Positions 12,806-35,164 of a stretch of 64,000 nucleotides of DNA are shown piece by piece. Where the stretch lies: positions 3,099-67,098 of the forward strand of contig JBKUJR010000010.1 of the NCBI GenBank assembly GCA_046952735.1, in the 5' to 3' direction. Below the pieces are notes generated by a model that worked only from the letters and a program-made list of their open reading frames with translations, did no database searches and was not told where the DNA came from. Origin of the DNA: Clostridia bacterium. Its GTDB lineage: Bacteria; Bacillota; Clostridia; UBA1212; UBA1255. Position 1 is the stretch's first letter. Every line of letters starts with the position of its first letter. Both the position numbers and the translations under genes were made by a program.

Positions 12806-13488
12806 CAAAGTTTCCGTTTCATTTCATACTGTAAGCGTATTTACTATTATCTTTAATCGCCCTCCCTCTTTATGGGGAGGGCACCACCTTGGAATATCGA
12901 ATCACATTGGAGCCGGGCAGCAGGAAGACTGCGCTGTACGAAAGAATACTCAATAAACAAGAAAACTCACAATAGACGATAAAATCCGTGCGCAAGAAAG
13001 AACCGCCGCGGTCCGCGCTTTTAAATATCAGACGTAGTATCGTATTCTGACTTCATCACAGAAACTGATATTATCCGTCAAGTCATGATGGCAAGAACGC
13101 GTCCTCAAAAGGAAAAACATTTCTGTCTACTGTGCAAGGTATAAATCGCCTCATTTCGTACAGTATCTGACAAAGGATGAAAAGATCAGTTCCGTATTCA
13201 AACTTCTGCAAAGATCAGCAAGCGTACTTTCTCCTCTTTATTAGACCATTTGTTTTTTTCAATACTTTCAACCTTCGAATACCCCAGCTCGTCGAAAATT
13301 TTCAGCGCGTCCCGGAAGGCGGCGGGGTATCTTGTTTTAATAACATCCTGCGCAGATTTCAAGGTTTAATCCGCCGTGAAACGCTATATCAAATATCAAA
13401 CAGTACAAGAGGAAAATTAGACAATAAGCTAAATGCGCTCTGTGTTTAGGTACAGGCGAATCAGCGATGTAAACCAAGGTATAAAAGG

Positions 13489-13518
13489 TCGGAGCAAGCG
13501 ATACAAGGCTTGCTCCGA
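13489..13518 (-). terminator. rho-independent terminator downstream of the sigma-fusion gene (minus strand)
   Basis: An 11-bp stem TCGGAGCAAGC/GCTTGCTCCGA with an 8-nt loop. On the minus strand it is followed by CCTTTTAT. Confidence 0.5.
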
Positions 13519-13552
13519 CATATAAAAGCTCTATGGTAATTTTCCTCTGTGG

Positions 13553-15172
13553 TTATTCGTTCGGTAAAATGTCACAAAACATAATCAGGTTTGAGGTTAT
13601 CTTTTCTCTGTCGGTCAACTCTTTAAAAGTACCGTTTTTATAGAGAACATCCAGCACCATCACGGCTACCGTATTGCCAACAAAACATCCGGCGTTCCAG
13701 CTGATAACCAGATCGCGCATTTGCGGAGGAAAATCTCTGGCAGCGGCCTCGGCACTTTCAAGCGCGTAATTTGCAAACTGCTTTTTCACTTTTTCATCGA
13801 GCTCCGGAATTTTTGCGAAAAACGCTTCCGACTCGCCCTTGATTACCATGATATTCACTTGGTTGTCAGGAGTAATATAGTTACGGTACCGAAGCCGGTT
13901 GAATTTATCTGCGTTGGCCTTGTCGTCTGCTATTGCACCGGTCAAGTATTCATAGAGGTACTCATAGTCACATGTTAAATTATTTTTCCAGTGACCTTCC
14001 CTTGAGCAGTACCTTGTATCTGTCGACCATGCATAAACCGGATACTTTTGTGAAAAACGCATCATATTACCGCAAGCATAATACGAAGGCAGATTCAAGG
14101 TGGGACTATAATCCGTGTCAGACTGGTTCGCAGGAATAGATACATCTGCAATGAAATTTCCTCCCGCCGCCGTTTTGATGTAATATTGTGACAAGTCTTT
14201 TTTTATCGGCAGCTGGCATTTGTTCGCAACGCCATAAAAAATAGCTGCCGCCTCTAACAACTCTCGATTTCCGCTTGGAATGTACACATTATTTATATCG
14301 GCAACTGCCGCGCGTACAGAAGCGGCATAATCCTTCGCAAGCAGTTCTGCAATTTCTAGTTGTTTCTTTAATCGGTTTTCCTCCTGTTCGAGTGAAAATG
14401 TTTCCGGATTGAACTTTACATAAGTTGTAAATTTATTTCCTGCCTGCCTCACCAAAAATCCGTTATCCTCAAGAAACGCTATTCTTTCTTCAATGTATAC
14501 GGGGGTAACACCTAATTCCTCCGCAATTTCTTCTTTTGTCTGTGGGCTGTAATATACGCTATAAACAATATTAAGATTTAAGCTGTCCTTTAAGTAATAC
14601 TCCGGACCGCCGTTTGAACCGGGATCTCCGCTGTGTGCGAATCCTGTCGCTTTTATCGGCTTTAGGCCGAGCTTTCCAATTTTTCTTTCCATAGTAAATC
14701 CTTCCTTTAATTTATTTCTAGCCTTACTTAGAAGCCATTTGACTGTTCCTTCCGGTATTTGTGTTTCCTTTGCAATCTGAGAAACAGACTTGTTTTCGTA
14801 ATAATAGGAATAAACAATTTCGCGGCGGGTTTGAGCGAGAAATGCAATTTCACGACGCAATCGAAACGCCTCTTCCTCTTCATCGCCCAAACGATACACA
14901 TCTTCGAACGGAATATCCATCCCATCGATAGAAATACCGTGGTGCTTTTTCATAGATAAAACAAATTTAGAATATATATGCTCACATATCCGCCAGACAT
15001 ATCCGTCAATGTTATAAATCTCCATCGATGAAAGCAACGAGGAATATAATCCACATATAATTTCTGAACATAGCTCTTCCGCTTCCTCATAAGAAAAAGA
15101 CTTCTTAATGGCAAATCCATAGATTTTGGGTAAATATTCTGTTATGATCCTATCTGCTTTTTGTTTATCCAT
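13553..15172 (-). CDS. sigma-70-family domain (regions 2 and 4) fused to a roughly 390-aa C-terminal region containing a second HTH
   Basis: The N-terminus has sigma region 2 (YLPKIYGFAIKK...EELCSEII) and region 4 (REIVYSYYYENKSVSQIAKETQIPEGTVKWLLSKARNKL). Further on there is a second HTH-like segment (TKEEIAEELGVTPVYIEERIAFLEDNGFLV) and a long C-terminal region with no recognisable domain. AT-rich. Confidence 0.65.
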   Translation of the reverse strand: MDKQKADRIITEYLPKIYGFAIKKSFSYEEAEELCSEIICGLYSSLLSSMEIYNIDGYVWRICEHIYSKFVLSMKKHHGISIDGMDIPFEDVYRLGDEEEEAFRLRREIAFLAQTRREIVYSYYYENKSVSQIAKETQIPEGTVKWLLSKARNKLKEGFTMERKIGKLGLKPIKATGFAHSGDPGSNGGPEYYLKDSLNLNIVYSVYYSPQTKEEIAEELGVTPVYIEERIAFLEDNGFLVRQAGNKFTTYVKFNPETFSLEQEENRLKKQLEIAELLAKDYAASVRAAVADINNVYIPSGNRELLEAAAIFYGVANKCQLPIKKDLSQYYIKTAAGGNFIADVSIPANQSDTDYSPTLNLPSYYACGNMMRFSQKYPVYAWSTDTRYCSREGHWKNNLTCDYEYLYEYLTGAIADDKANADKFNRLRYRNYITPDNQVNIMVIKGESEAFFAKIPELDEKVKKQFANYALESAEAAARDFPPQMRDLVISWNAGCFVGNTVAVMVLDVLYKNGTFKELTDREKITSNLIMFCDILPNE

Positions 15173-15405
15173 ATCGATTACCCCGGCGCCGTTTGACTAT
15201 ATAGTGGCATGAAAAATAAAATGGTTGGCATTTTTTGTATAATTATTTTTTTAAAATTGTACCCTGTATCGGCGTAGGGCAAATTCACATTCATATAATA
15301 AAATGCAAAAAAGCCGGCTTCTTTTGGCAATCCTCTGTCTGCCGGATACAAAAAAGATACAGGCAGTTAAGAGGAGATTCTATTTATTTGCTGTATATAA
15401 TAATT

Positions 15406-16578
15406 TTATTTTTCCAAATTTTTTTCAATAATATTGGCGATATTGGCAAATCCACGTTTCCGCAGCGCGTTAAGAAATTCATCGGTGCTTTTATTCTCCA
15501 ACTCTGTAAAGCATCTGACCACTTTTTTCATGTTATCAAACCCAATATCGTTATAAATTTTATAAAAAAGTACGGTTCCCTTTTCATGCACTCCATCGGG
15601 CCGGCTTCCGTCAGGTGTTTTTATCGGCGGCAGCGCAGCATACTGCTCGATTTTAGGCTGTAAGGCAGCGTGAAAAAGATCGGCGTTATTGTTATGAAGC
15701 GCAAACAATAAAAAAGCCCATTCCGCAGTCGTTTCGTTAAGCCAGTCCTCCCAACTGCAGGCATCAGCACCGGCGCACCAAATATGTGCGGTTTCGTGTG
15801 CAAACAACCAACTGATTTCAGCTTCATTGCTCCCTAATGAGGTACACCACATAAAATCTTTTCGTCTATAACCGCCGCCTACCGTTATGAATGGGGAGGC
15901 ACAGGCAATATCCAATGTAGAAATATTAACTTTATTAAATAAATCACCGTTATAGAAATTTATGATATCATTGTAAATTTTATTTGCTTGTTTTGCCTGG
16001 GAAGCAATGCGATGATCGCAGAAATATATATTCATATACTCGCTTGATATTTTTTGTAAAGAAGCGCTGTTATAAGCTACAATATTATACGGATCAAACC
16101 CCTTGTTTCCATACCCCCATGTTGCATCTTCAGGATTAAAAATACCTTTTATGACAAACCAATGGTGTCCGTCTTTGATAATTACGTTATCTATAGAGAT
16201 ATCAACAGATATATCCTGGGGATACCAGACCGAGTAGAAACTTAATGAGACAAAATCGTCCGTTACGATGTTGTGCCAATTTTTTCTCTTTTCTAAATCA
16301 AACTGAACCGAACCATAATATTCAATAGCAATATTCTCGATGGGTTCGTATCCTGTCACTTTTATTACTTGCGATAGGGATCTGAATTGCGGTGAAATTT
16401 CACCGATTTTTTGATATGTTATGTTTGCTCCAAGTATTGAAGTAATCGTCAGATCATTGTTAAGAACAAATGAAAGTTCTTTTTCTGTGTTATTCGGACA
16501 GATGATATTTGCGGAAGCGAAGAACTGATTGCTTTGAAATCTTACCGTTATTGTCATTGCGTTTTGTAACATTATCAT
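15406..16578 (-). CDS. M1-like gluzincin metallopeptidase (HEXXH...E), cytoplasmic
   Basis: LFAHETAHIW followed 18 residues later by NETTAEW gives the HEXXH-(18)-E gluzincin signature. No signal peptide. RBS GGGAGAG. Confidence 0.65.
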   Translation of the reverse strand: MIMLQNAMTITVRFQSNQFFASANIICPNNTEKELSFVLNNDLTITSILGANITYQKIGEISPQFRSLSQVIKVTGYEPIENIAIEYYGSVQFDLEKRKNWHNIVTDDFVSLSFYSVWYPQDISVDISIDNVIIKDGHHWFVIKGIFNPEDATWGYGNKGFDPYNIVAYNSASLQKISSEYMNIYFCDHRIASQAKQANKIYNDIINFYNGDLFNKVNISTLDIACASPFITVGGGYRRKDFMWCTSLGSNEAEISWLFAHETAHIWCAGADACSWEDWLNETTAEWAFLLFALHNNNADLFHAALQPKIEQYAALPPIKTPDGSRPDGVHEKGTVLFYKIYNDIGFDNMKKVVRCFTELENKSTDEFLNALRKRGFANIANIIEKNLEK

Positions 16579-34771: not shown

Positions 34772-34929
34772 TTAGGGATTGACAAGTATACTAATAGGAT
34801 GGTATATTAATTTGGTCAGCGAGACTATTTGGTAGAAAATCAAATGTCCAAGACATAAATTTTTATTGGAGCTTTTTCAAAAATATTTTTGTTATCGTGT
34901 TTTTTCAAGGGTAGCAAAAAATAAAATAT

Positions 34930-35005
34930 GCACCTTTAGCTCAGTTGGTAGAGCAACTGACTCTTAATCAGTGGGCCCAGGGTTCGAGTCCCTGAAGGTG
35001 CACCA
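34930..35005 (+). tRNA. tRNA-Lys (anticodon CTT)
   Basis: GCACCTTTAGCTCAGTTGGTAGAGCAACTGACTCTTAATCAGTGGGCCCAGGGTTCGAGTCCCTGAAGGTGCACCA folds as a cloverleaf with anticodon loop CTCTTAA and an encoded CCA. A TTGACA...TG-g-TATATT promoter-like element lies about 120 nt upstream. Confidence 0.9.
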
Positions 35006-35014
35006 AAGAGTATA

Positions 35015-35058
35015 AACCGAACATTTTACCGGATGGGAAAGTGTTCGGTTTTTCTTTT
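35015..35058 (+). terminator. terminator after tRNA-Lys
   Basis: AACCGAACA...TGTTCGGTT stem followed by TTTCTTTTTC. Confidence 0.45.
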
Positions 35059-35164
35059 TCGCTTCCTTTTTTCTCATAAACCGGTAATTTTTCTTGCTGG
35101 TTTTATATGCTCCTATTTATATTTCCGAATGCGATCACGACTGTAACAAAATAAACAACATTTA

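Follow-up and report, generated by a model that had tools for sequence, protein, structure and literature searches.

What is the AT-rich tract that separates a GH127 gene from a DUF1266 gene in the genome of a Clostridia bacterium, and how was it formed? The window analyzed here is a stretch of 64,000 nucleotides (GenBank assembly GCA_046952735.1, contig JBKUJR010000010.1, positions 3,099 to 67,098). The tract lies at about 12.8-35 kb of this window and contains tRNA-Ala(CGC), tRNA-Lys(CTT), remnants of several recombinases and an intact 9.4-kb gene cassette that most likely makes a small Cys-rich peptide. An earlier interpretation from the letters alone (hereafter the sequence-only reading) had described the tract as an island carrying both tRNAs, an old and fixed integrative element that has kept its cargo. 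The present analysis suggests that the tract is probably a fixed, composite genomic island, built by several insertions at a variable spot around a native, divergent tRNA pair.

Composition of the tract

The G+C and tetranucleotide profiles showed the compositional break that the sequence-only reading had expected. The 39 1-kb windows of the backbone had a mean G+C of 0.490 (sd 0.037, minimum 0.388), whereas the 21 1-kb windows over 12.8-34.8 kb had a mean of 0.362, and 15 of them fell under the backbone minimum. Tetranucleotide usage was corrected for base composition, and size-matched chunks of the backbone were used as controls. The correlation with the backbone was 0.66-0.74 for the inter-tRNA parts, compared with at least 0.81 to 0.96 for the control chunks. 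The compositional departure from the host that is typical of a genomic island is therefore present (G+C 0.32-0.43 versus 0.49; tetranucleotide correlation 0.66-0.82).

The shift is real, and the tract is compositionally uneven. It consists of five segments with G+C of 0.39, 0.37, 0.42, 0.32 and 0.43. In the inter-tRNA insert, the steps are 0.373 at 16.9-21.6 kb, 0.421 at 21.6-23.4 kb, 0.321 at 23.4-32.7 kb and 0.433 at 32.7-34.8 kb.

The tRNA pair in related species

The state without the island was judged from two related species, L005 (a metagenome-assembled genome of Clostridia) and L086 (a 515-kb human-gut contig). The features that anchor the comparison are as follows.

10928-12805: GH127 gene
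16672-16747, minus strand: tRNA-Ala(CGC), found by ARAGORN and Rfam
about 16865-16905, minus strand: tRNA-Ala promoter; the block TTATTATATCACCCG...GAAAAAGCAA is common to the window, L005 and L086
34779-34808, plus strand: tRNA-Lys promoter, with TTGACA at 34779; ATTGACAA is conserved with L086
34930-35005, plus strand: tRNA-Lys(CTT), found by ARAGORN and Rfam
35028-35049, plus strand: terminator hairpin of tRNA-Lys

Both tRNAs and the terminator were thus found where they had been placed from the letters, and the Rfam search gave these two tRNAs and no other RNA. L005 is 73-79% identical in nucleotides to 6457-12749 and 37371-39965 of the window. It keeps both tRNAs in the same order and orientation, 3.3 kb apart instead of 18.2 kb, and its spacer (10884-13294 of L005) is occupied by another small accessory module, which consists of a TetR regulator together with an ABC ATPase and an FtsX permease. 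In L086, tRNA-Ala (minus strand) and tRNA-Lys (plus strand) are only 418 bp apart. GH127, tRNA-Ala and tRNA-Lys are syntenic in the relatives and, in L005, so are the genes of the right flank up to coaD/rsmD, which are housekeeping genes. The tRNA-Ala gene is 98-99% identical to the copies in L005 and L086, and the tRNA-Lys gene is 100% identical to both. Scans of genomes and metagenomes with the GH127 protein gave no genome of the same species; the best relatives had 70-73% protein identity.

The alignments with L005 and L086 showed that all of the tract is absent from these species, which share the flanking genes. The open reading frames (ORFs) of the island had no counterpart at the L005 and L086 loci, except for a 30%-identical sigma-fusion gene in L086, and neither relative carries the same genes with similar composition. 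These facts support the earlier proposal that the tract is acquired accessory DNA. The claim that the island carries the two tRNAs, however, did not hold. Since their order and orientation are kept in two related species without the island genes, tRNA-Ala(CGC) and tRNA-Lys(CTT) are, judged by this conservation, native and divergently transcribed backbone genes, not island cargo.

Both tRNA promoters are still recognizable in alignments of the window, and the insert therefore lies between them. This insert (V2, about 16906-34775, approximately 17.9 kb), the ends of which are the points where similarity to the relatives ceases, is on the 5' side of both tRNAs. The spacer would tolerate extra DNA because both promoters point away from it. 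Repeats of either tRNA 3' end, which had been proposed as attachment (att) sites, were searched across 11-37 kb with up to 3 mismatches, and none was found. A general search for direct and inverted repeats in the same interval gave nothing att-like and no convincing boundary repeats. The att sites of serine recombinases have only a 2-bp crossover in common. Because the insert is 5' of both tRNAs and there are no 3'-end repeats, classical integration at a tRNA 3' end is excluded for V2.

Two other explanations of the spacer must be weighed here. The long inter-tRNA region could be ancestral and have been deleted in the two related species. There are only two outgroup species, and they differ from each other at the spacer, which would leave room for such a history. 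The region, however, is a strong compositional outlier full of mobility-gene debris, copies of its largest part, 78-94% identical, occur in hosts and contexts that are unrelated, and the two relatives would need independent clean deletions. We regard this history as very unlikely.

It is also conceivable that the metagenome assembler joined DNA of another organism across the conserved tRNA genes. The window apparently comes from a metagenome-assembled genome, the tRNA-Lys gene, being 100% identical across species, could act as a repeat, and the inner junctions are spanned by no independent contig. On the other hand, each tRNA has its promoter on the side of the insert, and these promoters are still similar to those in the relatives, so that the similarity breaks in unique sequence and not in the tRNA repeat. 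Two correctly oriented chimeric joins would be required, and the left G+C boundary (12.8 kb) lies within an independent Logan contig of 100% identity. We give very little credence to such an artefact.

Layers of the insert

The insert between the promoters is made of at least four layers of different composition: (1) a dead tyrosine integrase with defence and regulator leftovers, (2) a serine-recombinase stub with an IS481 remnant, (3) the peptide cassette and (4) two tandem serine-recombinase pseudogenes. From left to right, the features are as follows.

17035-17590, minus strand: tyrosine integrase pseudogene, catalytic domain only (partial PF00589 match; frame translation)
17666-18076, plus strand: YhcG / PDC-S02 PD-(D/E)xK nuclease, C-terminal third only (PF06250 positions 37-156; PADLOC PDC-S02 218-347 of 351)
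18102-18557, plus strand: DUF1653 gene
18818-19333, minus strand: XRE/RstR-like repressor
19811-20221, plus strand: nucleotide-binding-domain fragment of an ABC exporter, C-terminal piece
20202-20954, plus strand: ATPase of 250 amino acids (aa), AAA_21/AAA_15
21682-21884, plus strand: serine recombinase stub C, about 65 N-terminal residues in two frames (frame translation; tblastn)
22255-22850, minus strand: IS481-family transposase remnant, frameshifted and 5'-truncated (partial rve and rve_3 matches)
23380-32773, plus strand: intact 9.4-kb peptide cassette
32876-33980, plus strand: serine recombinase pseudogene A, two frameshifts, without the catalytic-serine N-terminus
33975-34771, plus strand: serine recombinase pseudogene B, two frameshifts, 3'-truncated after about 250 codons

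All of the remnants listed in the sequence-only reading were found in their places; of its XRE regulators, only one was present, not several. It was also right that three large serine recombinases are frameshifted, and all three are truncated as well, with remnants on both sides of the peptide cluster. The mobility genes expected of a genomic island are present (tyrosine integrase, three serine recombinases, IS481 transposase), and all are pseudogenes: every recognizable mobility gene is disrupted, as had been noticed from the letters.

The left edge of the insert is the dead tyrosine integrase, which reads outward about 130 bp from the tRNA-Ala promoter. It has lost its N-terminal half, including the N-terminal domain, and has an in-frame stop within the HxxR motif ('GPHS*RSS'). 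The serine recombinases were mapped on a 611-aa recombinase of an Evtepia phage (L171) as a reference; Resolvase and Recombinase domains were detected in the remnants. In stub C, 21762-21884 corresponds to residues 175-215 of the reference (tblastn). Remnant A (32876-33696 and a tail to 33980) covers residues 194-479 in three frames, the catalytic-serine region being gone. Remnant B matches up to residue 397 of 611 (34750); this pseudogene, the right edge of the insert, reads outward and stops a few bases short of the tRNA-Lys promoter. None of A, B and C is a full-length large serine recombinase with catalytic serine, Recombinase domain, zinc ribbon and coiled coil. The two tandem copies at the right end had been called about 70% identical; A and B are indeed 69% identical, but over 123 nt only and not throughout. 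The idea that stub C (21.7 kb) and remnant A (32.9 kb) are one gene split by the cassette was rejected, since they overlap by about 20 reference residues and their sequences differ. The IS481 remnant has 38-41% protein identity to annotated IS481 transposases.

Recombinase B breaks off at the tRNA-Lys promoter, and the original right junction therefore appears to be lost. Since, in addition, every recombinase is dead, the island DNA would no longer be able to excise.

The closest annotated relatives of recombinase B are in phages of Evtepia (Oscillospiraceae), with 52% identity, and an XRE/RstR-like repressor is present in the insert. Could the insert then be a degenerate prophage or conjugative element? 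The ORFs scanned with Pfam, PHROGs and NCBIfam gave no match to capsid, tail, terminase, portal, relaxase or type IV secretion proteins. No structural, packaging or lysis gene of a prophage was found by PHROG or Pfam, and no relaxase, coupling-protein or type IV secretion gene was found among these ORFs. Apart from the tRNAs there is no near-identical phage or plasmid DNA: a megablast search of 24.6 kb against 50,697 phage and 72,556 plasmid records returned the tRNAs only. A prophage or conjugative origin is extremely improbable.

Among 5.8 billion proteins, the nearest relatives of recombinase B have 83% and 74% identity, and both are truncated ORFs in defence- or toxin-antitoxin-rich islands. 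Its truncated or frameshifted relatives in L172, L173 and L174 stand beside AEP-TOTE/DEAD/PLD genes, an AAA_14-DUF4143 gene or a Gp49/helix-turn-helix toxin-antitoxin pair. The Evtepia phages have three recombinase-like places per record. In L171 (Evtepia phage NatCom_42594), three serine-recombinase-like stretches lie at about 3.6-9.2 kb, and about 165 aa at the N-terminus of the 611-aa ORF are an extension that does not belong to the recombinase. The stretch upstream of this ORF may be degenerate, because it is annotated only as several tiny hypothetical proteins.

In the left layer, the ABC fragment at 19811-20221 has 41-44% protein identity to the nucleotide-binding domains of the cassette exporters and may be a vestige of an earlier exporter or peptide cluster. 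Two contigs with homologous cassettes, L163 and L164, have an additional ABC-ABC-S8-fragment set ahead of the cassette. The AAA ATPase was considered as a member of a complete defence system and rejected, as there were only partial matches to PtuA, GajA, AriA and MAD3 and no partner gene. Two similar G+C-rich palindromic terminator-like hairpins, 19502-19539 and 23290-23327 (GCGCAAAG...CTTTGCGC), are 71% complementary to each other. Between them lie the ABC fragment, the AAA ATPase, stub C and the IS481 remnant.

The peptide cassette as a separate unit

The cassette contains the following genes.

23434-24261, plus strand: transglutaminase-like gene
24266-25573, plus strand: maturase of the radical S-adenosylmethionine (radical-SAM)/SPASM type, 446 aa
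25551-25841, plus strand: acyl carrier protein ACP1
25904-26035, plus strand: precursor peptide, 43 aa
26078-27901 and 27898-29679, plus strand: ABC exporters
29691-31490, plus strand: S8 protease fused to a TIGR04066 domain, 599 aa
31487-32428, plus strand: predicted CtaG/BtrH-like transacylase, 313 aa
32444-32689, plus strand: acyl carrier protein ACP2

A search with the radical-SAM protein found homologues at 72-88% identity, and their contigs keep the gene order of the cassette. The homologues in L163-L170 are collinear with 69-83% nucleotide identity; the closest relative, L175, has 93.5%. The homologous stretch begins at 23380, some 55 nt ahead of the first start codon, and extends to 32773, which is 84 nt past the final stop codon. 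It breaks off sharply at both points: the flanks share nothing with the window or with one another. Elsewhere the cassette stands next to IS110 and a second, partial set of exporters (L163/L164), to a tyrosine integrase (L165), to IS91 and an integrase-like gene (L169/L170) or to a helix-turn-helix gene (L167), and some of the contigs have no mobility gene alongside. In L175, a gene for an Sfp-type phosphopantetheinyl transferase (8557-9204) comes right after the second carrier-protein gene. The G+C of the cassette is 26-34% in every host, even where the neighbouring DNA has 45-54%. These observations suggest that the cassette is a separate unit that circulates on its own.

The nine genes of the cassette are all full length compared with their homologues. 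The ratio of nonsynonymous to synonymous substitution rates (dN/dS) against L163 was 0.09-0.27 over the whole divergence between the loci, which argues that the cassette has been kept intact under purifying selection. The 43-aa precursor is kept in 7 of 7 homologous loci, with a nearly invariant core, CCPSGQSGNC.C, and a hairpin lies 3' of its gene. It matched none of the NCBIfam models. A 68-aa ORF at 23180-23386 was considered as the precursor and rejected, as its position is outside the conserved cassette; the 43-aa ORF, which is conserved, fits instead. A promoter-like site stands at 23092-23121, to the left of the cassette.

With the layers and the cassette in hand, the single old element of about 22 kb in the sequence-only reading, which would have carried both tRNAs, integrated once and then decayed with its cargo kept, can be weighed. 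Its cargo is intact, the AT-rich tract is continuous, and recombinase remnants stand near both ends of the inter-tRNA part and on either side of the cassette; tandem recombinases are known from some Firmicute elements. Nevertheless, the tRNAs and their promoters are positionally conserved in relatives without the element, and tRNA-Ala splits the tract into parts of 3.9 kb and 17.9 kb, with at least four layers. The composition changes stepwise between segments, the cassette recurs alone elsewhere without the other island genes, and the presence of a tyrosine integrase, an IS481 remnant and three serine-recombinase paralogues that differ from each other points to several elements. A single element therefore seems unlikely.

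Probable formation of the composite island

The composite island would have formed as follows. Foreign DNA would have entered the short promoter-to-promoter spacer of tRNA-Ala(CGC) and tRNA-Lys(CTT) in several separate events, one of them led by the tyrosine integrase and one or more by large serine recombinases. An IS481 insertion and the arrival of the 9.4-kb peptide cassette would have been further events. Stops, frameshifts and deletions would later have inactivated every recombinase. A deletion reaching to the tRNA-Lys promoter would have removed the last recombinase's 3' half together with the original right junction. Selection would have retained the peptide cassette.

It is worth noting that several points weigh against this history. 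The empty state rests on two related species whose flanks have 70-79% nucleotide identity, and neither exact-protein look-ups nor genome and metagenome scans yielded an island-free strain of the same species. The insertion events were not observed as such; their order and number are deduced from the composition and the remnants. The inner junctions at 16.9 and 34.8 kb are bridged by no independent contig; contigs of the same sequence cover only 8337-13290 and 35014-36359. In the cassette, the phosphopantetheinyl transferase gene of L175 is missing, and the remnant of recombinase A follows 32773 instead. The dN/dS values, spanning the whole divergence between loci, are no proof of present-day expression, and the scores of the radical-SAM enzyme and of the TIGR04066 domain are below the NCBIfam family cut-offs. 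Weighing these points with the evidence given above, we still consider a composite island built by several insertions to be probable.

As an island, the locus is ordinary: a genome of gut Clostridia has gathered foreign DNA at one permissive spot and then locked it in. It also illustrates that tRNAs at the edges of an island need neither belong to it nor be its att sites. The cargo is the part worth following up: a gene set that is intact, apparently selected and passed around horizontally, and that would make a small modified peptide rich in Cys. Its sharp boundaries at 23380 and 32773 define the exact DNA to clone.

Predicted product of the cassette

The most likely product of the cassette is a small Cys-rich peptide that contains the conserved core, and it is probably an antimicrobial or signalling molecule. 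The enzyme set, with two carrier proteins and a CtaG/BtrH-like transacylase, is unusual. From the family membership of the enzymes, the radical-SAM/SPASM enzyme would cross-link the peptide and the S8 protease would trim it; the CtaG/BtrH-like Cys-His-Asp transacylase might add an acyl group taken from a carrier protein, and the ABC pair would export the peptide.

The maturase has PF04055 and Fer4_12 matches, as a radical-SAM/SPASM peptide maturase should. In NCBIfam it matched TIGR04463, TIGR04334, CefB and PapB (E 1e-51 to 1e-34), all under the equivalog cut-offs, and it scored 93.9 bits against TIGR04068, whose equivalog cut-off is 500. The short Cys-containing precursor near the maturase that is expected of a cluster for a peptide that is synthesized ribosomally and modified post-translationally (RiPP) is present as the 43-aa ORF. 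The TIGR04066 domain of the S8-fused 599-aa protein matched positions 2-273 of 361 in the profile with 97 bits (E 1e-27; cut-off 200). ACP1 matched TIGR04069 weakly (E 0.008, 16.6 bits; cut-off 70).

The 313-aa protein had no direct family match. A word-indexed search found 6 relatives of it, compared with 297 in an exhaustive profile search of the full library. BtrH_N matched 32 of 40 aligned members, and Cys20, His125 and Asp143 are conserved in at least 90% of these 40. The structure model had a predicted local distance difference test score (pLDDT) of 43 when made from 7 close sequences and of 94 when made from the 40-sequence alignment. Its best fold matches were CtaG (E 1e-8), AziU3 and CcbD, in the range of E 1e-8 to 1e-4 (Foldseek). 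A profile search of the PDB sequences with the family gave nothing significant, and only the fold comparison matched. The CtaG variants in the PDB, C11A, H128A and D144N, line up with the Cys20/His125/Asp143 triad. The 313-aa protein is thus predicted to have a papain-like fold with a Cys-His-Asp triad.

CtaG, AziU3 and CcbD are carrier-protein-dependent enzymes that form amides. The 313-aa protein most likely transfers an acyl group from a carrier protein to the peptide. This role is favoured because the ACP2 gene is directly downstream and because a phosphopantetheinyl transferase gene follows ACP2 in L175. Less probably, it may act as a leader protease (C39-like). Members of the 313-aa family include domains in proteins of 1141, 1677 and 3980 aa, and their presence in such very large proteins suggests a link of the family to non-ribosomal assembly lines.

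We tentatively put forward two ideas together, as a possibility on which we would not count. First, the cassette would be a self-contained, often transferred unit, and its ribosomal peptide would receive both radical-SAM cross-links and an acyl group, which a CtaG/BtrH-type transacylase would transfer from a carrier protein. Second, the promoter-to-promoter tRNA-Ala(CGC)/tRNA-Lys(CTT) spacer, which has three different states in three species, would be a recurrent landing site in this clade. To our knowledge, no described RiPP class combines radical-SAM cross-linking with acylation from a carrier protein. The recurrent landing site, if true, would suggest recombinases whose target at tRNA genes is the 5' side and not the 3' end.

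Variable segments outside the tRNA pair

Two further segments (V1 and V3) differ between species on the 3' sides of the tRNAs.

12806-16666, strand not assigned: V1, variable AT-shifted segment 3' of tRNA-Ala, G+C 0.394
13553-15172, minus strand: ECF-sigma-fusion gene in V1 (Sigma70/ECF matches)
15406-16578, minus strand: metalloprotease-like gene in V1, 390 aa (HExxH-x18-E motif)
35061-37370, minus strand: V3, variable segment 3' of tRNA-Lys, G+C 0.488, tetranucleotide correlation 0.91
35165-36358: DUF1266 gene in V3 (Pfam)
36772-37203: GtrA-like gene in V3 (Pfam)

The tetranucleotide correlation of V1 was 0.82, against a control minimum of 0.87. V1 is absent from L005, where flavodoxin, TetR and helix-turn-helix genes stand at that place, and L086 has there only a sigma-fusion gene, 30% identical to that at 13553-15172. 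V1 is the only variable piece 3' of tRNA-Ala, and it has no integrase; it is probably a separate variable piece that was acquired separately. The 390-aa ORF beside the tRNA-Ala 3' end, which adjoins the sigma-fusion gene, was considered as a hidden integrase. This was rejected, as the ORF has no match in Pfam, NCBIfam, PHROGs or PADLOC and has instead a motif of the HExxH-x18-E (M1/gluzincin-like) zinc-protease type (HETAH...WLNETTAEW). V3 is absent from L005, in which tRNA-Lys is followed after 209 bp by the homologue of window 37370-37909. V3 thus varies between species, yet it looks native in composition.

L093 is a second contig of the L005 species. The two contigs are 99.9% identical and split exactly at the tRNA-Ala 3' end (15544 in L093, 10433 in L005); because they diverge exactly there, this flank is a recombination junction in that species. 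Past tRNA-Ala, L093 has a TetR gene, an EamA transporter, an 862-aa KAP-NTPase/epimerase fusion and an IS3 transposase, with no tRNA in the next 6 kb. Window 2988-6456 is a second segment that the L005/L093 species lacks: the match of L093 covers 1-2987 and resumes at 6457. With a slightly AT-shifted G+C of 0.39-0.44, it looks like a small variable region to the left of the island.

Comparison with known systems

Classical tyrosine-integrase islands have their att site at a tRNA 3' end. The present island resembles such tRNA-associated islands in being adjacent to tRNAs, AT-rich compared with the host and absent from relatives, and in having an integrase that reads outward at its edge and accessory cargo. 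It differs in that the insert is 5' of both tRNAs, between divergent promoters, that no tRNA 3'-end repeat is present, and that the integrase has an in-frame stop and no N-terminal domain.

Integrative elements and prophages of Firmicutes that use large serine recombinases, some of them with two or three such genes, include SCCmec ccrAB, Tn5397 TndX and the triple recombinases of the Tn1806 type. The two tandem, outward-reading large-serine-recombinase genes at one end of the insert, with a third paralogue further in, resemble these elements. In contrast to these elements, all three genes here are pseudogenes, the terminal one is cut off, and there is no phage or conjugation module.

The predicted transacylase shares the fold of CtaG (closthioamide), CcbD (celesticetin) and BtrH (butirosin) (Foldseek E 1e-8, TM 0.62-0.66). 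The positions of its triad match C11, H128 and D144 of CtaG, and a carrier-protein gene is adjacent. The sequence identity, however, is only 8-13%, and the 313-aa gene belongs to a ribosomal-peptide cluster and not to a non-ribosomal or aminoglycoside pathway.

The cassette as a whole is closest to the CLI_3235/CcpM-type Cys-rich system of Clostridia and Paenibacillus, represented by SacP23 of P. polymyxa (PMC10731318) and by the cluster of Roseburia intestinalis L1-82 (PMC4573289). Clusters of this type consist of TIGR04068, TIGR04066 and TIGR04069 members with a subtilase and ABC genes. In common with them, the cassette has a radical-SAM/SPASM maturase, a domain that resembles TIGR04066 at a score under the family cut-off, a small carrier-like protein, a subtilisin-like protease, an ABC exporter and a short Cys-rich precursor. 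Unlike in that system, the maturase is best matched by TIGR04463, Clo7bot and CefB (E 1e-51 to 1e-45) and by TIGR04068 only at 1e-26, the protease and the TIGR04066 domain are fused, and the precursor matches no NCBIfam model. The cassette also adds a transglutaminase-like gene, a CtaG/BtrH-like transacylase and a second, canonical ACP. Judged by its gene content, the cargo is a new variant of this known clostridial system for the maturation of Cys-rich peptides.

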